NCBI GenBank assembly: GCA_051294905.1
Contig: CM119372.1
Coordinates: 5,024,001-5,088,000, forward strand
DNA length: 64,000 nucleotides
Reading direction: 5' to 3'
Origin: Botryllus schlosseri
Taxonomy: Eukaryota
In this document: piece after piece, positions 1 to 42,438 of the stretch
Layout of the letters: the number at the start of each line of letters is the position of its first letter
Position numbering within the stretch: position 1 is the first letter of the stretch
The notes under the pieces: model-generated
The model's database searches: none
Told to the model about the DNA's origin: nothing
What the model saw: the letters and a program-made list of their open reading frames with translations, nothing else
Made by a program: the position numbers and the translations under genes

Positions 1-3000
1 CGCCGCGTGAAGAGACACCTTCAGAGGATAGCGAAGAGGACTGGACGCCGTCGGCCTTGAAAACGGTGAAAAAACCAATAACCATCAACATAAAACTTCC
101 TGGTGCGCAGACGGAGAAAACTAACGATCCAGCAAGCCATAAAGCGCAAAATAACGGAAATGAGAAGGTTCGTAAACGTAAAAAGAAGAAGAAACGTCAC
201 ACCAATCCCGGCGATTCTGCTATGTCCTTGGAAATGTTAGGAAAGACGTTGAAGCGGTGCCGCGAAAAAGCCAACGTGACAACTGAAAAACCCGCAGACA
301 ATACAAAGACGAAGGAGCATACCGTTGACACTGATTCCAAACTAATCGGTGGAGCCTCCGGCACTGCGATGGCGCCGGAAAAGAAAATCGATTCGCAATT
401 CAACAACCAATATCACAACGCAATGTGGTATCCCGCGCAGAATCACGCCATGATGAATAGGTGTCGGGCGCAGGTGGTGAGGCCGGTACGCGGGTATCAT
501 TACCCGTACGCGTACCAGGCCATGCGCACGGCGAGCATGCGGTATCCTATGCATCCGGGGATGCTCGCGATGACGAGCATGGAGCCTCCGCCGTTGCCAG
601 AAGACGGTAAGTCACGTTGGCCACAATAGTGAATAATATATTTGTATTGAAATGAACCCGAATATTTTTGACTGACACCCGTCAGGGGTAATTGTCAGCA
701 ACTAGTAGAGAATTGAAAAGGACATCGTATATTGACAATCGTATCACTAAATATGATGCCGCCTGCGTGAAAATTCAGGTTTATTTCAATATGATTGTAT
801 TATTCAATCGTGCATTGAAGTTCACTGCATCCGAGAGCCTCTTCGATTGTGTGCGTGTTGTGTTTCTGTTGTATTTTATTTTTGTTCTATCAAAAAACTG
901 GCAACGAACTATTTCTACTTTTTCCCAATACTAGAGTAGGTTTTTCCTACCCTCGCTACTTACTCCAGTGGTTGTGTTATGTTAGAACACTTCGCTTCTG
1001 CTTGATTGATTTTTTACGCAAAACAGCTTGCTTTTTAGACTTTGGATTTTGTAAAATACAAAGTAGTAGTGTTTGGGTAGGTTTGCACACCTATATGGCT
1101 GATATTATCATACCAACTGGGCCAAATACACCGTGCACCATGGTATCTGAATGTACTTGCGAAAATTGAACCTATTGTGATGTCGTTATTGACAATTAGC
1201 GGCTACAAGTATGCGGCCGCACGACCAAATCAACTTTTTTGAACCACCTACCCGGATATCAAAATATGGTAACCCTATACTATTGACCACTGCTGTAAGT
1301 ACGGCGCCCTTGCCCCTTCATTAATAGTTACGTTCTTGTATTTAGAATTTCCTGAACGACCACCGGAGCCTAAAGAAAGTGAGTGGCTTAAGTTGTAGTT
1401 AGTGTTTTCGCAGCCATGCAGTGATGTGTTTCCAAGTTGTTTGATTCCGACATGACATGAGATACACAAGTAGCTTGAATTACACTTTGCCCGTTCTAGG
1501 GAAGAAATTGACCGACAAACAAGTGATGAATCTCTTCAAGAAGAAAAACATATCTGCGGAAACACTGCCTGTAATACTTCAAGACGATGAGGAGTACGTC
1601 CGCCAAACGCATAGTATTTATGCAGAGTAAAACGGTATTTTCGATACAGAAAAGAGGTGAAATTGCCGTCGCCCGCTCGATCCTTTGGTAGCGACCATCG
1701 CCGAAAGAGGAAGAGATCTTATCGCTCGAAGAGACATTCCAGCTCAGACTCGTATTCGTCTTCACGATCAAGGAGCAGCGATAGGTATTGTTGTCATCAG
1801 TTGATCTCTTGAAAAAATGTTATGATTCTGTGCAATATCGAATCATTGATCAGTATGGAAAATTTTTAGCAGAATATGTTTCTTGAGTTGAAAGTAGTAG
1901 TAATCGCGGCGAGGTACAGTAACATGCAAAAACTATTTGAAGCAGAAGTACAAATTGAAGGTAGGGATATCATTCGAGTAGTTTCATTATGTAGATTTGG
2001 TTACATTAAGCAGGTAAGTGAAGCTGGCTACTTTTGAAATTGCAATACTCACAATGAACGCAACAATACTAACGAGTATGACATTGCAAACAGTCGGTGG
2101 TCGGATTCAGCCTGTTTTCGCTGGTTCTGCAGAACTGTGTCACGAAATTTTATGAGATCAATGAACCTGTTAGAATTATTGGTTACTGTCGACGACTTTT
2201 TTTAATGGAGCTGACTTAAGAATATGACTATTTTGATTGAAAAATTGAACACCACCAACGCATGCAGGTGCAATTATTGAAAATATATTCAGTTGTAATG
2301 ACAATTTCACTCATAAAACGATGCAAATATATCCAAAAGTTACTTTCTACTACAAAATCCAAAGTCTAAAGCCTGTAATCTGGGAGCATAAACACTTCAG
2401 TTGCTAGTACAATTCGGAAAAAGTACTCAGTACTGTACATGATCATCATCATTTTATTAAAATTTTTATCAAATCAATCCACCACAAGATTGTTATACAA
2501 TGAAAAGATAGGAAGGTGCCGAAACGATTTGGGGTAGTCTTTGGAATCGGACACCCACCTCGGCCTACGTAATGTGAATCAGAGGCATGCACGCTGGAGT
2601 TGTAAAAGGATGACATAAAAGGAAGCGACAAAAATAAATGCTGCATGTGTCGGTAGGCGAGGCTGATAAGTCAGATTGTGGTCCTGTAATCTTCCAGGCT
2701 GACTAGTGTTGGTTCAGTAGAAATTGCTTGTATTTCCGATTGACAACAGATTTCGATTAATTATAATAATTGTCAACAGTATATAATGGCATGCGCGTTT
2801 GTGACGGATGCTTCTTCACATTCAGATCATCTCATTCGTACACGCATTCCCGATCTTCGTCGAGGTCCAGTTACAGCAGGTGACCATATCCGCTAGAATT
2901 TCTTCTTGCAAACTCACATTGAGTGAATTTTTTTCCTTTTTTTAGTTACTCGGAGGATTCTGACCGCAGTCGATCAACTTCCTCCAGGTAGAACCTGTTA

Positions 3001-3886
3001 TGTTGTACCGTGGTGGAATAGCCAGCAAAATTTATTTTGTACTCATGTAGAAGCATAGCCGTAAAGTTTTACTCAATTTGTAGTAGAAGCAGTAATTTAG
3101 AAGACGTGTCAAACTTCTTCAGGTGAAAGTAGAGAATGATGGTATAAGTATTAGAGTAAGTCGTAGTTATAAAAAGTGCACTTGGTTGATGGTTTGCTTA
3201 GATTTAGCAAGGTAATCATAGTTGTCTGCTTAGGAATTTGCCAAATCCATCCATCGAAGGACTAATGATGCTACAAATAGGTGAGATTCTTGAATATATT
3301 AACATGTTTCATGGAAGTTTCTGCCGATTTCTATGACGAACATATCCCAAAAACAAAAGGATATAGTTTTTCCGACAAAGTTGTCAAGTAGAAGTCCGAG
3401 TAATTCAAAAAGCACAACGACTTGAGTAAGTTGTTCAAGTAGGCAAAAGCTACTTCAGCTCTCCGAAAAAAGTAGAAGTAATTTGTTTCCGAGCGCCTCT
3501 CTGCTCTCTGTCGGTTCAATGCATCCACCAAAGTGCACTGTGCCATTGCGGATGCTTTAACCCACACCATCCTTTTAGATCACGATATTCGACATCACGT
3601 AGCAGGAGTAGAAGCCGATCGAGAAGTGATACGTGCGTATTGTACTTGTTATTTTATTGTTTTACTCGGAAGATGCAAAACGTTTTTATTTCAAGGCGCC
3701 GGGGTCGAACAACAAGCGTGGATTCATACAGAAGTGATTACTCCACGAGGTGACTTGTTTTGCTGATTGGTTATTTCTTATATATTTACGCAAGTTGAAT
3801 GTTGCAGATCACGAAGCGTGCGCAGAAGCCGCCGTAGAAGCTGGTCTAGAAGGTCCTTCGATTCGAGATCGGATTACTCTTATTGA
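1..3886 (+). CDS. RS-domain (Ser/Arg-rich) protein, 3' part; 5' end lies outside the window
   Basis: Frame-consistent GT-AG exons <1-606, 1500-1593, 1650-1784, 2826-2879, 2946-2987, 3579-3632, 3696-3749, 3808-3886 (TGA). Translation includes an NLS-like KRKKKKKR, PPPLPED, then RSKRHSSSDSYSSSRSRSSDRSSHSYTHSRSSSRSSYS...SRSRSRSRSRSDT...RRSWSRRSFDSRSDYSY*. AATAAA at 3929-3934. Family not identified. Confidence 0.85.
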
Positions 3887-8254: not shown

Positions 8255-11200
8255 ATGTCACAAGTTGTCGGCGAAGAGCCCATGACCGATATCTGCAAAT
8301 TCTCAATGCTGATTGGGGCCATCTTGGCTTCTGCCGTATACCTACAAGTCCTTCGCAACAGGCAGTATTGGGTCATCATGGAAACACTATTCGGAGTAGC
8401 GTCGGTGTTGTGTCTGCCATTTGCAGATAAAATGATTGCCAGCTATGTGAGTATTTATCAATTTACGCCAATTGTAATCGTGCAGGATTGGAACTGTTGA
8501 ATTTTTGTATCGTTACAGCAAACTACTGGCAGAAACAGTCTTGCGCTGTATCTGTTTAGAATAATGATATGCGCAAGAGTGGCTCAAGCGTCCGTTATAT
8601 TTTTGACGAGAAAATCTCGAGACCCGACTGTTGCAATTGGAATATCAATCAGCAATATCTTGGTAGGTAATAATGTTTTATGATGTTCAAGCGTTCATAA
8701 GCGACTCTTCGATGTACAGAACTTCAATATGCAACCGAAAATTATATGTTTACATAAACCCGAATATTTTTTGGCTGACACCTGTCAGGGGCAATTGTCA
8801 ACAGCTACTCCAAGTCGTGTTGACAGTGTCAAAATACAATGAAACGATATAGGGGTGTCAAAATTTGACAGCAATCTTGATCGCAATCTTGTGGTGCATT
8901 GATGTGATGAATAACAATAAACTGAACTCAACTGGTAGAGAAAAAGACCTTTTAAATTCACTACTAGTTGATGACAATTGCCCCTCCCTTCTAATAATGT
9001 CAGCTGAAAATATATGGGTTTATTTCAATATGAATATACTATTCACTATACTGTAGTAACCATCTCGAAACATAGTAGACCTTACTTTATTAACCATCTA
9101 CAAACATAGTAGACCTATATGCAGATCCGATCCAATAATATTAATGTTAGATTATCCTATATTTTGACTCAGTAGCACTGTGCAATAAGATAGCGCAATG
9201 GTGGAGTGGAGTGTCTGGCTTTTTGATCGGTAGGTCGGGAGCTCCATCCCCGGCCGGGTCATACCACAGACCCGATCAGTAAAACTGGTATTTTCGGCTT
9301 CCCCGCTTGGCGCTCAGCATTTCCGGGTGTTGCAAGACTTGAGAAACCTTACGAGGATATACCGTAATTTTCCATGTATAATCCGCAAAATTTTCACGAT
9401 CTTTTGCCCTAAAATCGGGGGTGCGTATTATACATGGGAACAACACGCTTGAAAAAAATCTCCCTCGATAAAAAACTTGAAATCACACCTTTCTTCATGT
9501 TTGTTTCCAATCGCGCATCACTTTCAGCCATCGTGCCCAGTAATTCGTATTATCAGTGTAACGCGTTGCCAATTAGCAAAAAGCGTGTTGCCAATTAACG
9601 AGAGGCGTCTGCGCAGCACGCAATCTCCTGCTGAGTTGGTTTGCCGTTTGCACGCGAGCGAAATTAGGTCATTCATTGATTGCTGAACGCGCGCGCGACA
9701 ATCCTCGCTAATTCATCGACAGTCCATGTGCGCAAAAGGTAATCGCTTGCGTAATCAGTCACATCTCCAACAGGCGTGGTGCGCACGACATAACCGTTGG
9801 CCTGAGCAATCGCATCTGACCTCGTGCGCAAGATGTCGCGTCGCCGGCCTCGCAGACTTTGGCTGCTATCTACTATCGTATAGAGACAATACCGTTACTT
9901 GTATAATGATTAGCAATCGCATCTGTAATAGGCCTCGTGCGCAAGACGTCGTGTCGCTGGCCCGAACTATCGCGTCGCCAGCCTCACAGGCTTTGGCTGC
10001 TCTCTACTATGACAATGCCGTTAATTGCATAATGATTAGTGATGGTCATGTCATGATTGTTCGACAGTGACATCGCAAAACAAAACACCATCGTGTACTA
10101 AAACACAACTATTCATGTACTGCGAATGCAGGGTGCGTACTATACATGAGAACAGGCTTTTTCCCAGAATTTGCATGCTATTTTAAGGGTGTGTATTATA
10201 CATGGGGGCGTACTATACTTGGAAAATTACGGTATGTACACCTTCCTGGTCCAGCGACATCTGCACATTATGCACTCATGGTATGCATATGCACAGGTCG
10301 TGTGTATGAGTATGTATATCATGAGTCGGTGTATATGCCGCAATAACGTCGAGGATTAAAATATGTAACGTCCTATCTCTAATACAATTTTCCTGTACGT
10401 TTTCTTTCATTCTATTTTTTGTTCAATTCAGTCAAGAATGGCCTTGGTGATGTGTGCCTTGCATGGGATTTACCATACATCGACAATAAATGAAGTGAGT
10501 GATTGAATCAAAGTTATTTACGACTAAGTAATGAAAGCCTGTGTAATAACTTATTGCAGAAGCATCTGAAAGTAGACGCCTTCGTTTGCTCACTTCTGAT
10601 TGTTGGAGACTTGTTCCAAATATCCAAAGTAACGACTCGAGAGGGCAGCCTGACTATCGGCGACCCCGTTAGCTTCCATCTTTCTGTGGATGGTCTCCTA
10701 TCGTTCGTGTTCGCTTCGTGGATTTTTGGATTCCCTGATATGTTTCTGTATGCTGTGGTAGGTGAACGTATATGTGAATTTATGCTCCCCTAGTAAGCGT
10801 CACATGATTCCGGAATTGTCTAAAATAGCTTTACTGTCTTGTGAATGCAGGCCTGTAATTTGTAAGTTCTTAGAATGTTTGTGACAGCCACATTGAGTGC
10901 ACCGCGCACGTGTACAAACTACTGGATTTTCAAAATGTGCTACTACAACTAGAACTAGTCACTTTTCAAATCTCGCAACCAAGGTTGTAATGACTCAAGT
11001 CACAATTTTTTGATGACTCGACTTGACTCGAGTCATTTTCTCAAAATACGGAAATGACTCGACTGTGTATCTGTGTATGGACTCTACTTGGACTCGAGTA
11101 ATTGCGCATGACTCGAACTAAGTTATTTGTCTCGAGACTCAGACGGCTAAGACCGACATTTCATTGTAATTTCGAAGAATAGTAAAGTAACCCTCTATTG

Positions 11201-12834
11201 GGATTTCGTCTATTGGTACTGGTACTTGAAAATTTGACCAGAAGCTACTAAAAGTGAGGAAAATTTGTATATTATGAATGCGAACCATTGGATATCACCA
11301 AACAGAGGTATAGAAAGTGGGTTTAACAAGACTTTGACTGGAAACTAAGCGGTCAACACAATGACTTGTACTCGGACCCGAGTCACAACTCTATGACTTG
11401 GAATCCACCTTCTCCTCGATGACTTGGACTCGGACTTGACTCGGTGGTGAATTGAAAATGACTCGACTTGACTCAAAACTATAAAAGTGAGATTGACTCG
11501 TGACTCGGAGCCTTGTGACTTCGTTACGACCCTGCTCGCAACTAGAACTAGAACTAACGACATTTAATATTCTGCATATAACTAACTAAATTGCAAATGA
11601 ATTGAAACATTGGAGTTAGAATCGGCATTTCAAAAGGACGGCGGTTTCGAGTTTGAAATGCGAGAGGTCCCGACCCGAAAACCCCTGGGCTATGCCACTG
11701 TTCGTAGTGAGCCACTGAACCAGACTTGGACAACTAGATAATTCTAGTTGGATCTAATTAGACAATTTGAGCAATATGCCGGTACTCTGATCTAATCTAA
11801 TTTATGAAATGCTTCCTTGCCCAAATTTTGATACAATTTTTGGTTTTACTGAGAAGGCTGCAGGAGATCTGTTTAGTGCGGAACGAGTCAAGCTTGCTAA
11901 ACAGACATTTGCCATTCTCATAGCTTGTGAGGATGAACTCCAATTTGATATGTTCAGTACTTCTAAAATCAAATTTGGAAAGCACAGTGTGGCTGTAATT
12001 CTAATTCTGATCTAATTTGAAAAAGCTGAAAATTTTCTAGTCCAACTCTGCCCAGAGCTAGCAAATATTTTTTTGATGCAAAAGTATAACTGGCACTAGG
12101 ACTACTCACAAAACCAGTAGGCCTAGTTAATTGACCGCGGTTTGAACAGTCAGCTTTGAACACTGTTCACTAGATTTCTTACATAGCCTACTCAAAATCT
12201 TCACTGATCGATACAACAATTACATAAATGCGTGTATTAGATCTGAAGATTTGCGCTGACAATATGACGTTCAGTTCTTTGACAGCACCATCGTCAAAAT
12301 GTGTACCAAAAATATAAAAACTTTTGATTTTAAGAATCCCAACATCACTCCAAATGAAGGCCAGGTGGCACTTGCAAAGGTGATTGGATGCATGGTGTTT
12401 GGTCTCGCCTTGCTGTCCTTTGCCGCTCTATGCTTCAAGAAAAATGATGATGGTGTGGCTGTATTACAAGCCAAGCTGATGGTGAGTAAACCACTTTATT
12501 GAGTTAATCTTGCCTTTCTAATAAGATACCGGTATGCAACTTGGCTAAATTTCGGTGTTGTGTTTTGCGAATCGATAGGCATTCATGCAATTGTTGCTGT
12601 ATGCATGAATGTCTTTTGATTTGGTTTGCAGGAGGCACTGATAGCTTTTTCATTAAGTTCGTAATTCTTTTGCAGTTCTACCTGCCGACATTCCTTTTTG
12701 GAACCTTGATTTGCATTACTGATGCTCAGTACAGAAGCCAGGGACATGTTTTCATGTTCATGACAATTTTTGCAGCACTCGGAGGGAATGCTCTGTATTC
12801 TGTTTGGCAAAACAGGAAGGAGAAGGAACGTTAA
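8255..12834 (+). CDS. Multi-pass membrane protein, paralogue A (300 aa), tandem TP53I11-like 4-TM repeats
   Basis: Exons 8255-8446, 8519-8662, 10432-10494, 10560-10757, 12335-12481, 12676-12834; all introns phase 0 GT-AG; open throughout. Motifs YLQV, TRKSRDP, GDLFQ, TIGDPVS, GFPDMF, LLSFAALCFK; ends RKEKER*. AATAAA at 13844-13849. Confidence 0.88.
9189..10375 (+). mobile_element. tRNA-derived SINE interrupted by the pogo-like element
   Basis: Degenerate A/B-box head followed by ccggccgggtcatacc...ggcgctcagca core shared with the copy at 56903-57160; 3' boundary approximate. Confidence 0.7.
9362..10232. mobile_element. Tc1/mariner-superfamily (pogo/Tc2-like) non-autonomous element inserted in a SINE
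   Basis: TIR ccgtaattttcca / tggaaaattacgg, TA on both sides, subterminal gcgta(t/c)tatacatg repeats. Confidence 0.85.
10980..11534. mobile_element. hAT-like MITE with GACTCGAGTC subterminal repeats
   Basis: TIR caaggttgtaa / ttacgaccctg; perfect TSD ctcgcaac. Confidence 0.88.
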
Positions 12835-14114
12835 GACCAGACAATAACTGATTCCAAATTATGGTGTCTGCTGTCAGAATGTTTTGAATATTTCCAAGAC
12901 TTCAAACACACTGACAAAATTTTTTGGAATTCATTTTGTACTGAGGCTGTACTCTGGCTGGTTGATAGGCCTGCTATTTTTATAAGCTTTCTCCTTTACA
13001 TAGAGTACTATTGCCACAGTTCCAATACCACATACTGTACACATGTTCGTTTGTGTATTGAATTCAATGGGTACCTGCATTTGATTTTATGATTGAAATT
13101 GGCATGCTGTTATTGCATTTTCACCCAAAATGTTTCTTTCTTTGTTACTGTCTATTCAGGTCATTTATTATTTGCATTGCCGTTATCGTGATGGTATCTT
13201 CAATACTTGTACAAATTATGTGTCTGCTTTTCTACCTAGCATCCATTATTAACGGAAATAGCTTTTTTCTATAGCTATTCAAAGGCCATGTCACATCTGT
13301 TGCATTAATCAATCAGAAAGCAGCTGCTGGACGTTAATATTGACAATGCTGTCACATATGAGACGTACCTTACCACTAGGAATCGGACATGTTTGGATTA
13401 TTGGACACATTTTTAAAGCTACTAAACATTTCCACTGATTGAAGTCAACTTTTTTGATATTGTCATGTTCCAATGTTGACATTTTTTAATGGATTTGTTG
13501 AAAACTTTTGACATGACTGGTTTGTGCTGAATTTTAACAAGCTCTTTTTGTGGGAATTGTTTGCAGCAAGTTCAGCTGATAATTCGCTAACACTTTTATC
13601 AATATTGTATGTATTGCTTTTAACTCTGTACGCGGCATTAACTACACTAACTACTGTTTGAATGAATTTGAGGCTATTTCCAAACCGGTACCATGGTATA
13701 TGAATATACTGAATGACAAGGAGAGAAGGACTTATCCATATATTGGATTACTAATGTCTTTTACTGGACATAAGCATAATCATTGCAGAAGGTAGCATGT
13801 TTGAGGCCCATTGTCACTGCCGTTCTTCCCAAATGTGTCACCAAATAAACGAGAAGTGTTTTTATGTGCTTCAATTGCAAATTTTTTATTTTGTAGCTAG
13901 TGAATAACTTGAAAATTCGCAGTTTCTCATGTATGTAGCTGGTCCCAGCCAGTGAAGTTGATTATATGTGAAAAATTATTTCATACACAAGTAATCATGG
14001 TAGCATTTTTCACAGTTAGAATTTCGCTCATTGTGTTAATTCGCCACTAACACTTGTTATTCGTTGCTCGATTTAGAATAGTTTCTTAATCAAGTAGAAA
14101 AATATCTCATCGAA

Positions 14115-17100
14115 ATGGCTGGCGACAAACCTACCGACTCGAAGAGTATCGATGTCCGGAAGGACTATATAAATATGTGCTTAGTTGGTGTCGCTGTCAT
14201 ACTTTTGTTTGTGTATGCGAGGATTGTGCAGAACAAGAAGCACTGGATTTACCTGGAGTGTGCCGTAGCTGGCCTTTACGCAGCGGCCAGCACTTTGCTT
14301 GGCAGATGGGTGGGTCTTGTTATTGCATTGGTGTTGAATTGATTTCTTATAAGTGTAACACCGAAGTGAGAAAATGGACAATTTTTTCCACAGATTTGTA
14401 TAAGGACCGGATCACGTCCTGACATATCAATCTTGCCTACTGTCACATGCCACCTCATTTTGTCGCTTGTCTTTTCATATCAACTTATACTTTTCATTCA
14501 GTGTGCATTCCCCTTCTTTACATCGTGTAGGCCCAGGTGGGTGTCTGATTTCAAAGACTACCCCAAGTCGTTTCGACACCTTCCTATCTTTTGATCGTAT
14601 CGCAGTCTTGTGGTGTTTTGAAATGATGAAATTTTAATAATAATAAACTGAAGGAACAGGACTACCTGACAGCAATGGTTGCTTAAATCAGGTGCGCAAG
14701 GCTGAATTCTCGCTGTTACGTAATTAATTGGTCCAAATGCAAATGCACTGTTTAATAATCACCAGAATGTTTTCTTACAGTAGACAATACCGTTTATATT
14801 CTGATTTTTGATGTCATGCAAGATGGGTTGTCAGCAAGTCCTTAACACTGAAATTAACAAATTCAGACATGACTTGAGTCAAGTCGAGTCATGTTAAAAT
14901 TGGAAGTCTAGTGATTGTAAATATAAGCATACTGCACGTGGGGTCGGTTGAACATTTAGTAAATATGGTCATTATATTCGGTACTCTCAAGTCTCAATCT
15001 CGGTAATCTATGCTAATGCTGGGCAGTGTCTTATTAAAGGAATGCATTTCAGTCGAAATTACTGATTTGTTACTGTTAAATGAATCTTTCCCATTTTTTT
15101 GTTGCTTCATGTGGTTTATAATAACTTGAAATATATTTTCAGGTTGGTGAAACCGGTTCCATTGCAGTCTATTTTATTCGACTTCGAGCTGCAGCTTTCG
15201 TTTCCCATGCCATGGCCACGTACTTCACTGAACACACATCAGATAAAACAGTGCCGATCGCAGTGTCTATTTCCAGCCTACTGGTGAGCTCTTCGCACAT
15301 CGTATTGATATTTTATTCAACCATCACAATATTTCCCATTTCTCTGTTCCTTAGATGAGATCTTCCTACGTCATTGCATTGGAATGTGGGTTATATTTGG
15401 ACAAATTCGGGACGGTATGAGTTCTGAAAATTCCCAGATCTTGGTATAGTAAAATTCATTTTTTCCTGTACAGTCGAAGGGAATTGTTTGCTGGGAAGCT
15501 GCGATTGTGTTTCTCCTTGCCCTTGGAGATCTGTACCATGTTCTCGCGTCGAAGACAAGAATCTACTCTCACCGCACCGTGGGCGATCCAATCAGCTTTC
15601 ATGTTTCGATTGATGCGATTGTGTCATTCTGTTTTGGGATTTTCGTACTTGGTTTCCCCGATGTTCTGCTGAAGGCCATTGTAAGTATTTACATCTTGAC
15701 CATTGTTAAGTAGGTCTAGGTCAGGAGTGTCAAACATACGGGCCATGAAGCAATGCTTAGTATATGAAAAAATGCTTGTATTATCCATCTCATTACCATC
15801 ATAACTCGAGGTTTTTAGTAAGGAGCTTTTCCATGTAAATAATACTTGAAGACGGCTAATGTGGAAAATGTTTGTGTGCCACATTAGAACAGTCCGAGGA
15901 CAATGTTGGTTTTCATTCTGATCACCATCAGTCACAAAAATGTAACATAGACACAATATTCCAAGAATGTAAAGAAGTACACATCCGGTTTTAAGTGTTC
16001 TGGAAAACTGGCCAAAAGTTCTATGGAGGCGAAAATACCGAAACCGTTGTATGCAAGTTAGCAGTATTCAAATAATATGCAGATATCTACAGTCAGCAGC
16101 ATTTCCCTGATACAGAAAATCGTTTACAATACAATTATGTGATCACCTGCTCACCACATTCGCGAGTGTACGGTGTAGAGTAGACGCTCTTTCAAGACAG
16201 CATTATTTAATGGTATATTCATATGTTCGGCGGACACTCGTCAGGGGTAATCATTAGGGCTGGGCAAAATGATTCGAGTACTCGAATCTGAATCGAGTAG
16301 TAATTCTAATGATTCGAGTCGAGTAGTAAAAGACGATTTTTTCGAGTACTGAAATTATACGGTCCTCGCAACTGAAAGTTAATTTACTGACGAGAATTAT
16401 AGTTTTGATACTATTTTCCACTGAGGAAGCCGTGAAACCTTGATTGGCCGTGTTTCAGCATACCAGGCACGGTACAAAGCTACGAACGTTACAGGAAATA
16501 GCACATTTTCGAGGTCATTATCATCCAAAAAAAATGTTAAGAAGTGCTATGACATCGGTATGGTCGAAAATATACCAAAGCATCATTAATGTGATGGATA
16601 ACAGGCATTACGTTCTTTGTGGTGGCATAAAAGGTTCATATTTGGACTTCGACATAGTACATCCTGTTGTGACGTCATAATAAGTGATACTCGATTACTC
16701 GACTCGACTCGAAGCATATTACGTGATTCAGAATCGAATCACTCAGGTACTCGATTTTGCCCAGCCCTAGTAATCATCAGCAACTGGTAGAAAATTGGAA
16801 AGAACACTGTATACGGTAACAACAATCTTATCGGGTTCATTTTCATATGAATATACTATTCAAGTGTATATTGAAGTCCTGTACCTCCAAGAAGCTCTAC
16901 AGCAGTGGTTGTCAAACCTTTTTAGACACGCCCCTCCTTTATGATAGCGAAAAATTCCTCGCTCCCCTTATCGTCATATCACAAAACGCTACCAGGATGC
17001 TCGCAATCCCAACGAATGGTGGCATGGAAGGTTATGACTGTTGATGAGAGAATTCTCAAATATGAAATTTGGACCGTGCACGAAGCAATAACCATGAATT

Positions 17101-18638
17101 GGAGATGTTATTTTCAGCTGACCGCAGCTTCGCGCCCCTAATCAGATGCTTTCACCCCCCCCCCCCCAGTTTGAGAACCACTGCTCTACAGCATTATTTG
17201 TTTAATAGTATTAGGCCTATTTCTGTTATTAGAATATGTTTAAAATATGGTTGTTTCATATAGTCCTATTCAAATCGCTTGTGACTCAATTTTTGCCCGT
17301 CCCTGAATGCATATTCATCACCGTCTAATTGAGAATGTTTATTCAGACTTCGAACTCGGCGAATGATACTCATCTGATAATTGTTCAATTGTGGGGCATC
17401 ACACTTCTATCCGGTGCTCTCTTGTCGTTCGCTTCACTTTGCTATAGAAACGATGAAGACGCTCTCGGCACATTGAAAGCGAAGCTTATTGTAAGAACAA
17501 ATTTTAATTTTCTCACTAATATCACCATTCACCATACTGTATTTTGGGTTTGCTCAAACTGACTTCTATAGTATTACTATATTCTTGCAATTGCTCATAA
17601 ACGCCTATCTTATTTCAAAATTGACGTGACCATGTCATGAAACATGAAACACTCGCACCTGATATTTTGTGCGAATTGCTCTGGCTTTCTAGACTACGAT
17701 TTTGTAATGTGATGTGATATTGGTACCATACATTTCATTATCTTGCAACAAAAATCGAGCATGCATTCCTCCGACTTGATAGGCTATATACACCACTAAC
17801 ACCAGGGTTGTAAAGACTGGAGTCACGATTTTTTGGTGACGATTTTTCAAATGCGTGAAATGACTTGAATCGAGTCATTGTGCATGCCTTGAACCAAGTC
17901 ATATGACTCGAGACCAGGACGGCCAAGACAGACGTTTTCATTGTAACTTCGAAGAATAGTAAAGTTACCACATTATTGGTGTTTCGTCTATCAGTCCTGA
18001 CACTTTGAGAATAGGGCCAGAAAATGTTAAAACTGAGGATAATTACGATATTATGAATGTGAGCCATTCTATATCACTCGAGCAGAATTGAAACAAGTGG
18101 GTTGAACCGGATTGATCTGAAAACTGAATAGTGAACATAATGACTTAGACTCGAGTCAAAACCATGAAAGTGAGATTGACGGAAAGTTGTGACTTGGTTA
18201 CAACTCTGTGTAATCCCCTATTGTAATGGGTTAATTTAACCATAGAAATCATTCTCCGATAAATTTTTAACCCGCTTATCAGGAAAACACATGCCAATAA
18301 AGTGTTCATTGTATGAATATCATTATGTTATACCGGCCGGCAATATCAAATCATCAATCTCAGCCTCTCATTCATTATATGTCATTGTCTTTAAAGGATT
18401 GTTTGTTGCCTGTATTTATGATGCATTGCTGTTCGCCTATGAATCATGATGGTTGATTCATGCTGTCACATTCTTTGTTTTTCAGGTCTATCTGACTGCT
18501 GAAGTGCTCGCTATCACTCACCTTATTGTTGATAGTAGTTTCCGTACCTACTGGCATTGCGGTATCATGGTCGGCTTGATGGGCGGGTTGGCGTGGAACG
18601 CCGGACACGTTGTTTACCAGCATGAGAAATATGAATGA
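14115..18638 (+). CDS. Multi-pass membrane protein, paralogue B (~299 aa)
   Basis: Exons 14115-14309 (donor GTGGGT, least certain boundary), 15143-15283, 15355-15414, 15474-15680, 17347-17490, 18486-18638; phase 0. Motifs GDLYH, TVGDPIS, GFPDVLL, LWGITLLSGALLSFASLCYR. Confidence 0.86.
16255..16769. mobile_element. hAT (Ac-type) MITE family 'tagggctgggca', copy 1, inserted in a foldback element
   Basis: TIR tagggctgggcaaaat / attttgcccagcccta; perfect TSD gtaatcat. Confidence 0.9.
16903..17183. mobile_element. hAT-like MITE family 'cagtggttctcaaac'; partial copies at ~31972-32230 and ~46900-47190
   Basis: TIR cagtggttgtcaaac / gtttgagaaccactg; perfect TSD ctctacag. Confidence 0.88.
17803..18208. 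mobile_element. Second copy of the 10980-11534 MITE family
   Basis: Colinear similarity (e.g. ttttcattgtaacttcgaagaatagtaaagt); termini cagggttgtaa / ttacaactctg; TSD not preserved. Confidence 0.82.
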
Positions 18639-18699
18639 GACTGAGTTGCTTTATAAAATTTTCGCCATATGCTTTTGTGTAACTTTGTGTATTCCCTAA

Positions 18700-19492
18700 T
18701 CTAGATTGTGGTGGATTTTATAAGCTGTTTCGAGTACATACGCAAATTGACATTTTGTTTTTATACTTCAATGATTTGTCATTTCCAATTGAGCTTTGTG
18801 TAATTTTTCATGTAGATTATGGTGAATTTTTTATGCTGTTCCTTGTCTATGAGCCAGCAGTTATGAAGTAGTCTGGTACTGGTATGTTACGTATACCTGA
18901 ATGCACAGTTTCATCGTACCGTTTTGCTGTCCATTTACAGTTACAATCATCATGGCTTTGGCAGCTTCAGTTATAAAAATTGTGTATTCTCTGATGTAAA
19001 TTGGGGTGGATTTTGTAAGGTAGAACACTATACAATGAAATTAGCATTTTATGTTTTATACTTCAATGCTTGTCATGTATCTTTTGCTGATTGAATTTTG
19101 TTTAATTTGTCATGTAGACTTCGGTGAATTTTATGTGCTGTTACTTGTACATGAGCAAGCAATTATGAAATATGTTACTTATGCGTGAAGACCGTCTTGG
19201 AGGTACAGAACTTCAATATACAATTGAAAAATATATTTCCATATTGAAATACACCAATTGTTCAGGGTGATCGTCAGAAACTAGTAGAGAATGATCTTTC
19301 CAATTCTCTACTAGTGGCTGACGATTATCCCTGACGAGTGTCAGCCGAAAACATTCGGGTTTATTTCAGTATGAATACATTATTCACTTGAAGTCGTATG
19401 TATAGTTTCATCGTGCCGTTTCGTTGTCCATTTACAGTTCCAATCATGGTTTTGGCACTTTTCTTCAGTTATTAAAAATTGTGTATTTTTGT
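18700..19492 (+). repeat. Diverged ~290-bp tandem duplication between paralogues B and C; second unit interrupted by a foldback element
   Basis: Colinear pairs: ggtggatttt (~18710/~19005), ttttatacttcaatg (~18759/~19055), agtttcatcgt (~18907/~19404), cagttataaaaattgtgtatt (~18968) vs cagttattaaaaattgtgtatt (~19466). Confidence 0.85.
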
Positions 19493-19626
19493 AGAGGGAT
19501 AAGTAGACGACTTCTTATATTCGCTAAAATGGCGCTTGTAGGAATCTGTTGCACTGATTGTAATCCGACGCTTTTATATTGTCTATTTAGATATTACTTG
19601 AATTGTAGAATAGGTCAGCAGTGAAA

Positions 19627-22600
19627 ATGGTGGAACTGAACGAGAACAATGTTACCCTGATCGTCGCAGCGTCTGTACTTGGACTCGTTGGGTACTTGCA
19701 AATCGTCAGACGTAGACAACATGTAGCCGTGATGGAGCTGGCTTTGGCTGTTGGCTTTGTTTTCTTCCTGATTCCAAAAGGAGCATTTTTCAGCTACGTC
19801 AGTATCTGATATTCCGTTTGTGTGGAACCATTGTGATTGTGTGAGATTTTAGGTCAATGCACGCGACGGGACAGCACCCAATACGGTGCTGCAGCTTATC
19901 GTCGCATGTCTCGTGTCTCACTGCGCTTGTCTGCACTTCACGAAGTATACAGAGAATCTGGAGGTTTCTCTTTGCACAACTGTAACCAATATTTTGGTGA
20001 GTAGGGTTGCTGCAGTACTATGTTTCGATGACTTTTAGGCTTCTGACGGTTTCTCTGTAAGGTAAAAGAGCTATCTTGAAAATTCTTCCTGGGATACAGC
20101 CAGATGCGGTAAAAGTCGGCGGCGTTCCAACGCGACTAGAAATAATGCCCCAAAATTTTACTCAGTTACATGTAGAAGTTGCTACTTAGCAATTCCCAAT
20201 ACCCGTGAAAACTAATTCATGGGAGAGCAGAAAAAAGGTGTGTAAACTGAGTGGTATTAAATGTGGATTTGGTGGGGGTCCTAATGCACCATCCACCATA
20301 TATGTATATATGTTAGTCCGCCTTTCATTTGTCAGCTGTTTTATGTTTTATTTAAGCTTATAATCGGTTTTGGTTGATTTTTTTTGTGAAGACACGTAAT
20401 TCTGGTATGATCAGACATACCTGAAACTGACTAATACTTTTGTCATAAGTTATTGATGACTTGGTAATCTCATTGTTTCAAAATTTAGTGATGGTTTTAC
20501 TATAAGCTAATGTGAAAAGGTGTGGACGAGACTCAAAACAATTCAGTTTAGTGACAATTAGGTCCATGGCGTTCATTTGAGGAACAAAAAGTTCAGTCGG
20601 GGTCAAAATTATTCTGTCACATGAATGATTTGTCACTTGCACGATTACAAGGACACTTTTCAATGTATCACTCAAATGATTGAAGCGACACTTTTCAAAT
20701 GGGAAATGAGCTGATACTCTGGTGGTTTGTCACTCAGTTGATATAAAACTGTCAATAGTATATCTATTCCATGGTGTTGTAACTAAAATTTACAGTTGTA
20801 CCGGTGTAGAACTAGGCCATGACCTGTGTAGAAGGTTGAGCTGATTGGATTTAGGGCAAGTTTTTGCAACGTTTTTTTTACAGCTTCCGGTAGCTTCCTA
20901 AATACTCGTAAGATATGTAGAATGCTGTTGAGCTGTTTGAAGGAATCTTATAGTGCAACTTTTGTCCATATTTTTCATGCAACTTTTTCGATTTTTCATG
21001 AAAGTATTTTCGATTTTGGTGAAATACACGGCCAAATTCGACTGAAACACCGTGAATCAGGACCGAAGTAACGCTTTTACGGGAGCTGAGCCTGAAAATT
21101 GACCGTTTTTTTTTAATCAACCGAGCAAAATGTGGTCAAAATGCAACTTCTGCAACTTTTTTCGAAAATAAATAAATAAATGCAACTTTCCACGGATTTA
21201 ACTGCAACAAAAACTTGCCCTAGATATCATTCATTGATAGCAATTGGCCACCTACGTCATTAACCTATGTTATGTTTATCTTATGTACCTAACGATGTTG
21301 CTTTTCATACCGTATTACAGACTCGAAGTTCTCTTGCTCTATGCTCTGTTCAAGGGATGATCTATGTGAAATCGTTGTCAAATGTAGGTGAAAGTCAATT
21401 TTCTGTTGACATGTCCTTGTTGAACTATTGCAATTGAATAATTCTGTTACTGGCTCTTTTCCAGGTCTGGTGTCTAGTGTCGTTGGCGGTACTGATCCCT
21501 TTGATCATTGGGGATCTCTTTCATGTGTTTCACATGAAAATCAAATATTCCGGTACTGTCGGAGATCCCATCAGCTGGTACTTGACAAACGATGCCATGC
21601 TGACGTTCGTCTTGGGAATGCTCGTGCTGACGTTTCCGAATATCTTTGGAAAGAAACCGGTGAGTTTGAAATTTTCGTATCGTTCAAAATGTTGAGTAAA
21701 ATTGATGGCTATACCGTTGGTCTCGTAACACAGAGGTCGTGGGTAAAATCCTCCCCGATGTCCTTCTCAATCCAGCCCCTGGTGGGCCTACCTGGCCTGG
21801 TTGTTTTGAGTAAAAGTAATGCAAACCTATCCCCAAACTACGTTCTACTTTGCAATAGTTGTAATGCAAAAAATCTGGTAGTTTTTCTTCTTCATTTTGA
21901 CCTGGCCTGTCCCAAGCCCGAATACATGAACAGTAGTAGGGGTCTTTAAAAATAAAATTTGAGAATTTTCTGTTCACCCCATGAAAGTGTTAGGTTGTCT
22001 ATAGAAACGATGTTCACCAAATTTGGTTCAATTCCAACCAGTGGAAACGGAGTTATTGCCGTTGAAAAATTTGAATTTGAATAAAATAGTATTTACGGTG
22101 GGCCCCACTATAATAAATAATTGAAGAATCGGTCAACGACTCACCATAAATACTATTTTATTCATAATCCACTTTCATGGGGTGAACAGAAAATTTTCAA
22201 ATTTTTTGTCATTTATTTTTATAGAATAAATAGAAACTTTCTTCTCCTGTAGCAATGCGGCTACAGGTTGGAATTGAACCAAATTTGGGGTGCAGGCTTA
22301 AATTAGGTAACCTAACAATTTTATCGAGTAGCCAGTACGATTTGAGAGGAAAAGTCATTTTTGAAGACCCCTAATGAACAGTGTTGTGGCAAGAAAGGCA
22401 CTTGGCCTTGAACTTCATAAACTTCACTGATGCAGCCTCTTCATTTTTTATTCATTTTCTGATTAGAGTCTCTTACTTGGTAACATGCTGACATTGGTAA
22501 AGCGGCTGTTCTAGTTTGACTTTTGCGTTTTCGCAAAGGACGAAGCAACGAAGCTGTTTGTGAAAGGTCTCGGCTTCATCATTATCTGTCATGGCCTTCT

Positions 22601-23031
22601 ATCGTTAAGCGGTGTCTGCTTCAGAGATGAACAGGACGCAACGTCTCTCCTGAAGTCCAAAGTGCTGGTGAGTCAATTCAATATGAGACAATATTGAATG
22701 AGTATTATTGTTAGAATTTTCTGCCTGGTTCTTACATATAGCCCCATTTGTCACGAAGACCACAGCTCTGCATTCAAAGCTTTCCTGTCATCCTGTTTAT
22801 CCTGTGACTACAAATCATTATATCATATTTTCTGTTGCTCAGCTCCAATATTTGCCACATTTTAAATATGACATTTTTCAGATGTATGTCCTTTGGTGTG
22901 CCGCTGGTGCTTCAAGCTACGTTACCGATAGCGCATTTTGGACTGAAAGTCACCCTTACTGTCTCGTCTTTATCTCCGGAATGCTCTTGTATAATGCTAT
23001 TCATATATTTATCGATAAGGCAACTTCGTAG
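19627..23031 (+). CDS. Multi-pass membrane protein, paralogue C (283 aa)
   Basis: Exons 19627-19797, 19853-19996, 21321-21383, 21465-21659, 22539-22667, 22882-23031; phase 0. Motifs YLQI, GDLFH, TVGDPIS, TFPNIF, LLSLSGVCFR. AATAAA at 23804-23809. Confidence 0.87.
20852..21222. mobile_element. MITE family 'tagggcaagtttttg', copy 1
   Basis: TIR tagggcaagttttt / aaaaacttgcccta; reverse-complement match to 41549-41812. Confidence 0.85.
21705..22410 (+). mobile_element. Degenerate tRNA-like SINE split by a MITE
   Basis: Head gttggtctcgtaacacagaggtcgtggg; tail gcctgtcccaagcccg resumes after the insertion; boundaries approximate. Confidence 0.5.
21937..22373. mobile_element. hAT-like MITE
   Basis: TIR taggggtctt / aagaccccta; 8-bp repeat atgaacag at 21926-21933 and 22374-22381, with 3 extra nt on the left; internal inverted segments. 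Confidence 0.75.
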
Positions 23032-24042
23032 AAGTATTGGTACGATTGTGCAATGTGTAGCCTGTATATGCCTGGAAGTAATTATATTTGTGTGTTTTGA
23101 TGTGTTAGATTCACTCCATTGCCTCTCCGTAACCTTTTATTCATATGCATTTTTACTATGAGTGTATTGCATACTCTATTATAATCATTTTGAAAGCCGG
23201 TTGAAGCAGATCTCTCTTCAGTGTTGATTCACTATGTCACCATCAAGTGAAATTAAGACTATTTTCCTTAATTTGACAAGCTTATATTCTTTTATGGTAG
23301 ATTTCTTCAAACTGCTACTCACATATTTAATATTCAATTACAGTGCGGTCACCTTGGAGCTTATTTTCTATGTTTACTTTTAGGACATATTCTGTAAATA
23401 TGATAGCCACAGTGTTTGCTACCCACATTTTGTAGTGACATGACAATAACCATGAATAACATGAAATCAATCATCAGATCAACTTCAAATTCCTCAGAAC
23501 CCTGATGTCATCTTCAATTAGTTATTGTCAACTTCTTCTGAGTCGGTATTGCGCTTGTCACCTACAACCTGTGTTGATGTGTAGTTAGACGATTCAATGC
23601 TTGATATTTATTATATTTGTTTGCCCATCATTCGTTCAATTGAAAAGCTTTTTTGGTATCCTTGAAGCAATTGTCGTTGATAGTGTTACCGTATGCATGC
23701 AATAATCCTGTGCCTTTCTTTTACTGCACTTCATCAAGTTTTAGTTAAAATAAGCCTGTTTTATTTGCCGTCTAACAATAATCATTCTTTCAGTGTAACG
23801 TGGAATAAAAACTTGCTCGTTTTTTGACTTGTGTAATGGGTTGTTTATGTGATTAATGTTAGTCTTTTCGTGTAGCACATTGTACTGTCATTTATCTTAT
23901 ATATTCATTGTATCATGTTTTGTCACTGTCGCATTGGTACTGATGCTTTGCCTGTTATGTTAATCATGGTCCTTCTTCATAATCTTTATGTATTTAGTTT
24001 AGATCTTTTTTACTTTAATGAGCAGTGACTAAATCTACCAGA

Positions 24043-26028
24043 ATGGATGCATTATTCGAGGTATTGAGCACATATCCCAGTTTAGTTTACGCCAGTGCTG
24101 GGTTGGCGTTGTTGCTTTACTTGTCTGTCCTCGCCAATGAAACGCGTTGGTGTAAATTTGAAGTGCTTTTAGGGATCTCCTATGTGTTTTCTCTGCCATT
24201 CTCGGGACATCTGCTTCGAATATGGGTGAGTGATGTCATATGCTTCATGGTTGTAGTCGTCTATTCAACTTGTTGCACTTCTAAAATATGACAGAAGGTT
24301 CTTAATTCACAAGATACACGAGCCATGTAAGGGTAGGCTTGCCTTACACAATTTTAAGGCTTGTGTCTTATCCACTCATGTCACATTTTGATTCGTCGAA
24401 ACTCCACCAGAACTTACATCTGAACTAGAGCATACCCTGAATAATTTTCAGTATAAATTTAAGAGCAATCGTCTGTTGTAATCACATAACATGAAATTTG
24501 TTTGTGGTATTTGTGGCATATGACATTATTACTATTTCAGTTGGACGGCAAGGATGGTGATGATGCTGCAAAATTTGTGTTTGCCTTAATACTGCTGGGC
24601 ATGACATGTTTAGCTTATCAAATACACTGGACGAAATCTACACGAGATCCAGTGGTGATAGCATCTCTCCATATCACTTGCATCCTCGTAAGGAGTCTGA
24701 ATTTGTCATCTACTATGTTTCCTTTCATACTTCTGCATTTTTCAGTCTAGAGTTGGACTTTTATTTGCTGCTGTTAAAGCAATGCTATTTTCAAGCGGAT
24801 TTTCTCGGGTCAGTATAAGCATTATTTCAAGTTATCGCCGTGAAATAGATCGGCTGACTACTTATTATTACTGCAGGATGCATTAATGGGGGACTGCGTA
24901 TTCATGGCACTGCTGATCTCAGGAAATATGTGTCATCTTAAAAAAGTATCAACAAAAGATGGTGGTTTGAGGATGACAGGATGCGTTCGGAAATATGTTG
25001 TCAGCGATGCGGTGCTATGCTTTCTGATTGGACTTGTTTTAGTCGGATTCTCAGACATTGTAGCCGACATTTCTGTAAGTGTTGAATGTCATAAATGTAG
25101 AAGATTCTCCGTGTAGCTTACAATTGGCTAGTCCTGTATTTGTGCTAATCAATTTTGGATATGTAGAAAATGTTAAGTGGCTTGTGTCCGATTAGGTTTG
25201 GATTTTTTTCTGCTACTGTGTGGCTTACTCTTGTTATAATTCACTTTATCTAATCTAGCAGATTATAAATTTATGTAATCTTGGGGTAAACATTAGAGCC
25301 CAACCGATATATTCACCTGTCATATTCGCCTTCGTGGAAGGCTATTACCAGTGTTCGGATCAGGTCACTACCTTCGAGTCACGAGTCATTGCACATTTGG
25401 ACTCGAGTCAAGTCAAGTCAATCGACTTTCAAGGGTGACTCGCGTCTAGTAAAGGTGACTCGAGTCAAGTCAAGTCATATGAAAAAGTTGACTTGAGTCA
25501 TCCCAACACTGGCTATTACTACTGGAAGCTACTGTCACGTGAGAAGTCCCGGTAAGCCAAAACATTGCCGTGTTCACATTATTATGCATAATCAGGTATT
25601 AACTGAAATGGTATATTCAATAGATAACGTTAATTTTTATATTAATAATATATTCAGTAACTTTCTTCATAGGTGAATAAGAAATCTGAAATTCACACGA
25701 TGCTGATCAAATCCTTTGGATTTCAAGTTCTGGCATTTTCCGTGCAGTCATTTGCCTCACTTTGTTATAAAGAAGATCAGGAGATAGCAAAGATCTATCT
25801 GCCCAGACTGTGGGTAAGCTCATTTTATAATGGTATCATTCATGCTAAATATTTAAGAACATTTTTTGAATTCAGATGCTGCTCCCGATTGCGGTTTGCA
25901 TCGCATGGAACGTAAACATTACCAATGCAACAATTTGTGAATATATCTTCCTATGCACTTCAATCGTTTTTATGCTGCAAAACTTACGGATATGCTTCCA
26001 CACACCGTCCACTACTAAGCAAGATTAA
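24043..26028 (+). CDS. Multi-pass membrane protein, paralogue D (294 aa, most divergent)
   Basis: Exons 24043-24225, 24541-24687, 24746-24808, 24877-25074, 25673-25813, 25876-26028; phase 0. Motifs YLSV, TKSTRDP, GNMCH, GFSDIV, SFASLCYK. Confidence 0.87.
25349..25511. mobile_element. Short hAT-like MITE with gactcgagtcaagtc repeats; related copy at ~28530-29080
   Basis: TIR cagtgttcggat / atcccaacactg; perfect TSD gctattac. Confidence 0.85.
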
Positions 26029-40400: not shown

Positions 40401-42438
40401 GTCGGTGTTGATAATTCGCAAATTTGAACTAATGTTAGGCTAGTTAGGGGTTCGGTCAGGGTAGGTGTGGATTAGGATTTAGGGCCACGAATTCCACATG
40501 CCAAATTCACCAAGCGCAGAAGTGCTTGGCTTCGCTCGAGTCGATGAGAAAGATGGAGTGAATCGTAACTCCGAGACAAATTCTCGAGACAATTTTTCCA
40601 ACTCAACACTTTGCAAAAAACTTCTGAAGTATTCTCACAGTCGCACTAGAGGTGATCGATGCCATTCTTAAATTTTTGAGTTTCGTCCCGTGTACATTTT
40701 CAATATGGCCGTAGCTGTTGTCAAAATGGCCTTCACTGGAATCTGCATCGCATCCACGGATTTAAAGAAACAGCTCCGACTCAAATGTTTGATGGCTTGA
40801 GATTGACCAGAGTCATGATTTCCAGCGATTCAAAATCACTCGAAGGTAGTGACTTGAAGCCAATTCCTGATTGGAATGAAACCCAACAGAAATCAAGTAT
40901 AGTTCATATCAAACCAGAGTTCATTCTCGTGAGCGTGAGATTGGAAAATGTGTGTACATTGAGCTCGACTCGTTTTGCTCTATACCTGGAGTGGCCAACC
41001 CGTGGACCGTGGGCTACATTTGGTTTTGAGTGGCCATCGAGGTAATTCTCAAAATTAGTTACATATCAAAAAATAAATTATCCAGGTAATTTATGATGAT
41101 CTTGCGAGGCCAACCAAAAGTTTGATTAGCCTGACCGTGAAATTTGGGACATTGCTGACTAAAATATCAGTTCCGACGCGTTCGCCGTGAAGTAGAATAT
41201 TTCGTGGCAAATTTATTTGACTTAATGTTTTTCTTATCGCTTCACGCGATTTATTGTCACTCGATTTCTTGCTTTCAGTATTGGTGCCCACTCCCGAAAA
41301 TTAAAAATACGCATGATTTACAGAATTGAGTCAACTATATCCGCAATTATAAGAGAACTGTTGTCAAACATACGAATTAGCGTCTGCACGCGCTGAAAGA
41401 TCGTCGGCGACGCAACATTTGCACAAAATGACAGAGACGCATGTTCGCCAAAATCTTCGATATTGATATGTCCGAGCTCAGAATCATCCTGTCCTTTATC
41501 AAATAGGAACAGCGGCATACAAGGCGACCCAAAATATATGCTAATAACTAGGGCAAGTTTTTGTTAAAAGCATTACTTCGGTGCTGATTTACGGTGTTTC
41601 AGTCGAATTTGGCCGTGTATTTCACTAAAATCGAAAATACTTTCACGATAAATCGAAAAAGTTGCAAAATGTTGCAAAAAGTTGCATGAAAAAAATGGAC
41701 AAAAGTTGCACTATAAGATTCCTTCAAACAGCTTAAAACAGCATTCTACATATCTTACGAGTATTTTGGAAGCTGCCGGAAGCTGTAAAAAAAGTTGCAA
41801 AAATTTGCCCTACTAATAACATTGTTTTTGACCGAATTCATTCATTACCTTTTAATAAATTTAGCGCTATACGCGGCTAGGAGAAGAATGAATGCTCACA
41901 GTTTCGATGTCATCATTGTTATCGATTTTGATGTGTAATAATATATATCTTGTTCTCACCGTTACCTAGTCCGGTTCGCTCCTATCGGACGTCAAAAAAA
42001 AGGTCATCCACATTAAAGTGGCCCGCGCAATGATTCGGAAATCTCATGTGACCCTTTGGCCGAAAAGGTTGGTCACCCCTGCTCTTGACAGTTTTCTTGA
42101 AGCATTTTCAGGAAAACCGGGAATTGAATTCAAATTAAAATCTTGAGCATCGATACATTTATAAATAGACTATTCTAATTAGTAAAGTAATTGCTGCTGT
42201 CCAAATACGTAGGTAGTCGACCGATATTTATCATTTTTATTGCGTCTCGACAGAGCAACCTTGCTGCAAAGCGCTCTACGACTTTGAAGCGGAAAACGAA
42301 GGCGAACTCGGTTTCGAAGAGGGCGACGTGATCACGCTGACGTCGCAAATCGATGACAATTGGTACGAGGGTATGCTGAAGGACAAGCTCGGCTTTTTCC
42401 CGGTCAACTACGTCGAAGTCGTAGTGCCTTTGCCTTGA
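34446..42438 (+). CDS. SH3GL2: Endophilin A (N-BAR + SH3), ~362 aa
   Basis: Exons 34446-34487, 34556-34627, 34876-34995, 35333-35429, 36376-36509, 37254-37311, [37724-37824 or 38651-38751], 39765-39899, 40234-40378, 42254-42438. Diagnostic peptides [45 protein letters not shown] and SH3 [20 protein letters not shown]...WYEG...GFFPVNYV. The symbol stands for the SH3GL1/2/3 co-orthologue. Confidence 0.95.
37724..37824 (+). CDS. Endophilin A alternative exon 7a
   Basis: AG acceptor at 37722-37723 and GTGAGT donor; 101 nt, phase 1-0; encodes (G)[33 protein letters not shown]. Confidence 0.8.
38651..38751 (+). CDS. Endophilin A alternative exon 7b
   Basis: CAG acceptor and GTGAGT donor; 101 nt, phase 1-0; encodes (G)[33 protein letters not shown], the copy closer to canonical endophilin A. 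Confidence 0.88.
40986..42081. mobile_element. Old hAT-like element in the last endophilin intron
   Basis: Termini ctggagtggccaacc / ggttggtcacccctg; degenerate TSD ctctatac / ctcttgac. Confidence 0.7.
41549..41812. mobile_element. MITE family 'tagggcaagtttttg', copy 2, nested in the 40986-42081 element
   Basis: Perfect TSD ctaataac. Confidence 0.88.

Follow-up and report, generated by a model that had tools for sequence, protein, structure and literature searches.

Four diverged tandem paralogues of the uncharacterised family DUF8292 in Botryllus schlosseri, with a predicted two-repeat membrane fold and a likely endoplasmic reticulum address

What are the four genes that lie one behind the other between positions 8255 and 26028 of a 64,000-nucleotide (nt) stretch of the Botryllus schlosseri genome (assembly GCA_051294905.1, contig CM119372.1, positions 5,024,001 to 5,088,000 of the forward strand; hereafter the window), and what might their products do? 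An earlier note, made from the sequence of this DNA alone, had described them as a tandem array of uncharacterised multi-pass membrane proteins. Judged by homology over their full length, the four proteins, here called A to D, are diverged, intact tandem paralogues of Pfam DUF8292 (PF26941) and not a new family. DUF8292 is catalogued, uncharacterised, and common to tunicates and protostomes (molluscs and nematodes).

The gene structures on which this rests were rebuilt from the window, and agree with the arrangement first proposed: all four genes are on the forward strand with six exons each, and all 20 introns are GT-AG and of phase 0, with no internal stop. Gene A (8255..12834, 300 amino acids (aa)) comprises exons 8255-8446, 8519-8662, 10432-10494, 10560-10757, 12335-12481 and 12676-12834; gene B (14115..18638, 299 aa) exons 14115-14309, 15143-15283, 15355-15414, 15474-15680, 17347-17490 and 18486-18638; gene C (19627..23031, 291 aa) exons 19627-19797, 19853-19996, 21321-21383, 21465-21659, 22515-22667 and 22882-23031; and gene D (24043..26028, 294 aa) exons 24043-24225, 24541-24687, 24746-24808, 24877-25074, 25673-25813 and 25876-26028. 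Exon sizes are closely matched across A, B, C and D, at 48, 47, 48 and 49 aa for exon 2, 21, 20, 21 and 21 aa for exon 3, 66, 69, 65 and 66 aa for exon 4, and 52, 50, 49 and 50 aa for exon 6. The genes are intact as claimed; the lengths originally given, 283-300 aa, are revised to 291-300 aa, with gene C using the exon 5 acceptor at 22515, a choice backed by the related sequence P0011.

RNA data bear the junctions out. At least nine of the 20 introns are seen joined, namely all five of B and introns 2-5 of D, and six further exon borders coincide with the ends of RNA contig pieces: the A donors 8446, 8662 and 10757, the A acceptor 12676, the C acceptor 22882 and the D donor 24225. Contig pieces stop at the C exon 6 acceptor in three RNA runs. 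No joints of A or C were found among the best 15 of 637 and the best 15 of 83 rows, lists that are crowded by intronic repeats. Read depth over exons in bulk RNA is highest for gene D. Gene C has low read depth and the weakest RNA support among the four genes. Exon differences between RNA and genome, among those listed, are silent in six of ten cases and residue-changing in four, too few and too selected to count. As a separate observation, dispersed repeats with many GACTCGAGTC-type words lie at 10990-11540, 16255-16770, 17800-18210 and 25350-25510; repeats of this type fill the long introns of the array, and most RNA reads fall on them.

Pairwise identities among A to D are only 24-32% (E-values 1e-18 to 1e-45), so that the array does consist, as proposed, of deeply diverged, retained and expressed paralogues, with close counterparts in other tunicate data. 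A profile built from exon 4 of all four genes retrieved three proteins, including the 'uncharacterized protein' XP_039266462.1 of Styela clava (LOC120341927, P0003), and further homologue searches added P0004, P0005 and P0009, all of tunicate type. The best full-length matches of A to D have 32-72% identity (E no more than 1e-34): gene A matches P0001 and P0004 at 66-68% over its full length and gene B matches P0002 at 72%, while among single exons C exon 5 is 78% identical to P0011 and D exon 4 85% identical to P0010. All six full-length homologue representatives returned (P0001-P0005 and P0009) are annotated with PF26941. In the ESM Atlas, PF26941 is DUF8292, with clusters of 153 (mostly Mollusca) and of 145 and 87 (mostly Nematoda) members; Atlas feature matches score 0.90-0.93 with 209-223 features in common, all of them to DUF8292. 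Since the Pfam copy used for domain searches did not hold the PF26941 model, the membership of A to D rests on this full-length homology. Pfam searches of 11 single exons of the array gave nothing above cut-off, and Pfam and NCBIfam searches of three and five homologues, respectively, gave nothing significant. No paper on DUF8292/PF26941 or its Styela member was found in the open-access library searched.

The array is the only DUF8292 locus that these searches found in the genome. With a full-length query all 12 matches in the whole genome fell inside the array, a result to be read with the proviso that the search worked on one exon at a time and may have overlooked distant copies; no further paralogue turned up elsewhere in the window or within 20 kb upstream. 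Metagenome contigs yielded no confirmed case among 171 pattern matches, and plasmids gave no match.

How old is the array? In an unrooted tree of ten sequences, A, P0001, P0004 and the Styela protein are split from B, C, D, P0002, P0005 and P0009 with support of 100; C and D have the longest branches, at 1.4-1.5 substitutions per site. If the Styela protein is the orthologue of A, the first duplication would predate the split from Styela; with the root placed on the Styela branch, all four copies would postdate that split. The proposal of an old expansion is thus borne out as far as deep divergence goes, and the age itself is only partly fixed.

About nine hydrophobic segments had been expected in each protein, and both a hydropathy scan and the helices of structural models agree with this. 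The fixed polar residues listed in the earlier note also held up, with E43, R114 and D177 in ten of ten sequences and others in eight to ten. Counted over ten full-length, tunicate-type sequences and in the numbering of A, the invariant positions are E43, R114, G149, D177, G217, S227 and C232. Nine of ten sequences have D150, G167-D168-P169, Y250, H272 and N286, the deviating sequence being D, and eight of ten have N110 and H173. Gene D is accordingly the most deviant copy, being without GDP, D150, H272 and N286. Lys and Arg are richer in the odd-numbered loops than in most even ones, a charge bias that would place the N-terminus in the lumen and the C-terminus in the cytosol. The C-terminal end is KxKxx in four of the ten proteins, A and its three closest homologues, and all ten tails have a Lys at position -3, -4 or -5. 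Dilysine motifs are the main retrieval signal of the endoplasmic reticulum (ER) (PMC5166505), and the A-type KxKxx tail probably points to the ER.

The predicted layout is one N-terminal helix followed by two four-helix repeats. It derives from the Atlas model of the Styela protein (predicted template modelling score 0.79), in which 116-132-aa proteins match twice, separately, over residues 40-160 (template modelling (TM) score 0.76) and 167-300 (TM 0.81-0.84), these scores being normalised by target; a 256-aa, mostly bacterial two-repeat cluster matches residues 45-306 with TM 0.79. Folded alone, the C-terminal half forms four long helices and a short one after the first, with a predicted local distance difference test (pLDDT) score of 76. 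Gene structure offers a second line of evidence: introns 1 and 4 of gene A follow residues 64 and 199 (135 apart), introns 2 and 5 follow residues 112 and 248 (136 apart), and the size of exons 2 and 5 stays within 47-51 aa in every copy of the array. These matching intron positions lend independent support to duplication of a four-helix unit. Offsets of 135-137 are at or near the top for each segment, at z of only 2-2.8. W39-x3-E43 and H173-x3-D177 occupy equivalent places in the two repeats, which appear to be parallel rather than inverted. The full-length AlphaFold2 model, built from five sequences, was poor (pLDDT 50.7), and no evidence was drawn from fold searches with it.

A Foldseek search with the model of the C-terminal half found nothing at E no more than 0.001 in the PDB. 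The predicted neighbours of this half include a cluster with 27% DUF4345 (TM 0.81), a DUF1304 cluster (TM 0.70) and DoxX clusters (TM 0.44-0.50); these values compare predicted models, and all lie below the Atlas bar for naming a family. Against solved structures the best Z is 10.9, to generic bundles, with NACHO/TMEM35A (PDB code 9h9e) at Z 9.2 (root mean square deviation (RMSD) 4.4 over 117 aligned residues) and EBP at Z 7.8 (RMSD 4.2, 131 aligned), which is below the generic level; the EXPERA family, which covers EBP and TM6SF, gave no Pfam match. No SURF4/Erv29 family appeared in Pfam at E up to 10 on any of three homologues. The profile had no match in 301 genomes of one bacterial phylum, and PF14936 (TP53I11/PIG11) none in 201 genomes of another, an uninformative result as the control was also blank. 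Sequence matches in the PDB, the best at E 0.082 and 0.016, were partial and were discarded. We take TP53I11/PIG11, presumably a single repeat, to resemble the C-terminal repeat, as a lead only that sequence comparison does not bear out; likewise, we assume that NACHO and SURF4 sit in one DoxX-like clan with DUF4345 and DUF1304. In the viral library, where the best row belongs to an uncharacterised protein of Mimiviridae (E 0.003, TM 0.66), the uncharacterised giant-virus proteins A0A5B8IGT5 and A0A6N1NMT7 (BFVD) are predicted to fold like the C-terminal repeat (TM 0.66 and 0.69); for the N-terminal repeat there is a match to an Atlas cluster that includes Nucleocytoviricota.

Gene D is likely to be spliced-leader (SL) trans-spliced at an acceptor on the forward strand at 23989..23997 (AG at 23996-23997), 45 nt before its ATG, as judged from one diagnostic base together with the match to the leader. 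All 14 of the 14 bulk RNA reads depart from the genome at 23995, where they carry the letter of the published chordate leader (table in PMC3795323), and the last nine letters of that leader match 23989-23997 except at 23995, a resemblance shared by five of the 3280 AG sites of the window. A plain variant having that site and base has a chance of about 0.5% (from 281 listed differences in 18,301 bases; an after-the-fact estimate). The leader 21-mer has 331 copies in this genome, dispersed over contigs, against none for the control. GT follows two of the four copies inspected but not the other two, so that the set may be a mixture of leader genes and retro-copied ends of mRNAs. A TTTAG candidate acceptor for B lies at 14068..14076 on the same strand, 38 nt before the ATG, and TTTAG-like candidates for A and C lie at 8225 and 19590, 29 and 36 nt before theirs; these three are read from the sequence only. 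Separately, a four-codon upstream ATG frame occupies 24018-24034 on the forward strand, between D's likely acceptor and its ATG.

The stop-to-start spacers measure 1280 nt (A-B), 988 nt (B-C) and 1011 nt (C-D), and candidate poly(A) signals lie in each on the forward strand: AATAAA at 13844..13849 for A (read peak bin 13599-14209), ATTAAA at 19471..19476 for B (bin 19098-19708, which also holds a repeat) and AATAAA at 23804..23809 for C (bin 23375-23985, with an RNA contig end at 23839). Strand-specific peaks in three single-cell runs reach 83.6, 23.8 and 51.1 before B, 158, 67 and 114 before C (with the repeat in the bin), 16.4, 6.6 and 10.9 before D, and 35, 14.6 and 18.7 after D. They probably mark the 3' ends of the genes, a 3' chemistry being suggested by the pattern itself. 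Two RNA contigs cross spacers, although a contig spanning two genes shows no single transcript: one at 12675-14308 (depth 54.9) leads from A exon 6 across the spacer and on into spliced B with no difference along the way, and one at 22881-24225 extends from C exon 6 as far as the end of D exon 1. Between the 3' end of C and the acceptor of D there are only about 160 nt.

As to function, we tentatively favour, by analogy, the reading that A to D are ER-resident intramembrane helpers for client membrane proteins, of the NACHO and SURF4 kind; it draws on the retrieval-type tail together with the likeness to those two proteins. In the ER, NACHO shields an interface through which receptor subunits assemble (PMC11565801), and SURF4 has eight helices, both ends in the cytosol and C-terminal lysines (PMC9929512). 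DUF8292 proteins would then reside in the ER through retrieval by coat protein complex I (COPI) acting on the C-terminal tail, would bind clients through the conserved polar helix faces formed by E43, N110, R114, D150, H173, D177 and N286, and would assemble or escort them, with clients perhaps divided among the four paralogues. A good many results weigh against this reading and the relationships it leans on. No function is attached to any member of DUF8292, and the invariant Glu, Arg and Asp in helices would fit catalysis or transport equally well. Loops 3, 4 and 6 show the Lys/Arg bias only weakly; six of the ten tails have a single lysine only, and the ten are not independent since the sequences are related. 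NACHO ranks 12th among the structural matches, level with or below tetraspanins, sarcospan, MS4A and designed bundles, and the tool's own guidance cautions that bundles of helices generally reach any Z below about 13. By sequence the internal repeat is not significant (probability 0.09%), the best offset, 136, being a tie at z 1.96. The DUF4345 (PF14248) hidden Markov model (HMM) matches none of three homologues and nothing in the genome; a profile of 17 bacterial DUF4345 members gives probabilities of 0.3% and 0.6% and a score of 15.0, against a shuffled maximum of 17.7; the PF14936 HMM matches neither the homologues nor this locus; and no family in the Pfam copy searched gave a match. A literature search on DoxX together with SURF4, TMEM35 or Erg28, open-access in scope, returned nothing relevant, and one on DUF4345 gave only an unrelated item.

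The earlier note had leaned towards an enzyme, a lipid-handling protein or a transporter. Its basis, conserved polar residues within the membrane, stands, but a non-enzymatic ER helper agrees at least equally well with the retrieval tail and the fold neighbours. An ER membrane enzyme or lipid- or sterol-binding protein, with a Glu/Arg/Asp/His site between the repeats and D inactive or re-specified, seems somewhat unlikely: the near-universal presence of E43, R114 and D177 (ten of ten) and of D150, H272 and N286 (nine of ten, with D alone lacking several), the placing of the W39-x3-E43 and H173-x3-D177 pairs, the appearance of EBP (Z 7.8) among the structure matches and the analogy of the tandem four-helix EXPERA repeats of TM6SF proteins all speak for it, but no Pfam or NCBIfam enzyme was matched, the EBP match is under the generic level, and no heme- or metal-type His pairs are common to all members. 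A carrier or leak for small solutes or ions in the ER, with its pathway at a pseudo-two-fold repeat interface, would suit the two repeats and buried charged residues, and human TP53I11, the look-alike of one repeat mentioned above, is reported to raise ER calcium (PMC11719883). We nevertheless consider it unlikely, given repeats that appear parallel rather than inverted, no transporter family or fold match, and a TP53I11 link that sequence does not bear out. It is very improbable that C and D are duplicates in decay that serve no distinct role. Their long branches, the residues lost from D and the low read depth of C point that way; against it stand six intact exons with clean splice sites in each, the 78-85% identical exons of C and D in related data, and the highest bulk exon depth belonging to D, whose expression despite lost residues suggests a changed role rather than decay.

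Transcription of the array as an operon is possible, and we rate it about even with four independent transcription units, each with its own promoter inside the upstream 3' untranslated region and each possibly trans-spliced, the spacer contigs then reflecting overlap or read-through. Independent units would account for the poly(A)-type hexamer 119-232 nt before each next candidate acceptor and for the separate 3' read peak of each upstream gene. They also agree with what is reported elsewhere: most Ciona operons are without spacer DNA and without AATAAA (PMC1488885), 9850 of 12397 non-operon genes in Ciona are trans-spliced (PMC11155486), and read-through misled the fuhc study in Botryllus (PMC3691228). 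The Ciona-type combination of no intercistronic DNA and no AATAAA is not what is seen at C-D, where AATAAA lies at 23804, the contig ends at 23839 and the acceptor at 23997. Against independent units stand the contigs crossing the A-B and C-D spacers and the mere 160 nt or so between the C 3' end and the D acceptor. The fullest account, namely an undescribed invertebrate ER assembly-factor family derived from a doubled bacterial-type four-helix unit, with four specialised paralogues in one SL-resolved operon having nematode-like 120-230-nt spacers and poly(A) signals, in contrast to the operons of Ciona, which have no spacer, is improbable as a whole.

Several neighbours of the array in the window deserve record. 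Upstream of it, 1-3850 on the forward strand holds the 3' part of a spliced gene with Lys/Arg-rich and RS-rich exons. A BAR-SH3 gene at about 34480-42440, which we take from its translation to be endophilin-A-like, contains two paralogous 101-nt exons on the forward strand (37724-37824 and 38651-38751) with matching phases; a transcript with both would have a shifted frame, and they therefore look mutually exclusive. On the reverse strand, 50207-52348 is a 713-codon intronless frame. Its product, presumably resembling IA-2/PTPRN, begins with a signal-like segment, has a single membrane helix and carries a tyrosine-phosphatase domain (PF00102, E 1e-71); the intronless state is unusual beside the neighbouring genes. 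The forward-strand segment 61815-62050 is, as we read its translation, an exon of a GLUT/SLC2-like sugar transporter.

Nothing established is overturned by this analysis. What it adds is the two-repeat layout with its intron support, the likely ER address, the list of invariant residues and the lead on trans-splicing and operons. The locus gives DUF8292 a validated gene structure and a short list of residues to mutate, and four paralogues with one natural 'mutant', D, make function testable, most easily via a member from a nematode. Should the array prove to be an operon with spacers, the range of operon types known from ascidians would become broader.

Set beside known systems, the array proteins would share with NACHO/TMEM35A and SURF4/Erv29, as predicted, an ER membrane architecture of four- or eight-helix units; they differ from them in having no sequence match, a structural match that does not stand out, an extra N-terminal helix and no known client. 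Bacterial DUF4345 (PF14248), DUF1304 and DoxX clusters and the 256-aa two-repeat cluster are alike in the predicted repeat fold, with the same register in the DUF4345 profile alignment, whereas these bacterial proteins have a single repeat or are without the extra N-terminal helix, and show no significant sequence similarity to the array proteins. The SL-resolved operons of Ciona (PMC1488885) resemble the array in their close same-strand neighbours, a downstream gene that is, here, likely trans-spliced, and contigs that cross spacers; those operons are mostly without spacer and AATAAA, whereas the array has about 120-230 nt from signal to acceptor and A(A/T)TAAA present. The nearest named relative, the Styela clava protein XP_039266462.1 (about 300 aa), is 52% identical over its full length to A, and 32%, 34% and 30% identical to B, C and D, respectively. 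Within DUF8292 itself, the array is set apart by carrying four diverged copies within 18 kb, one of which, D, has dispensed with the GDP motif and several of the polar residues.

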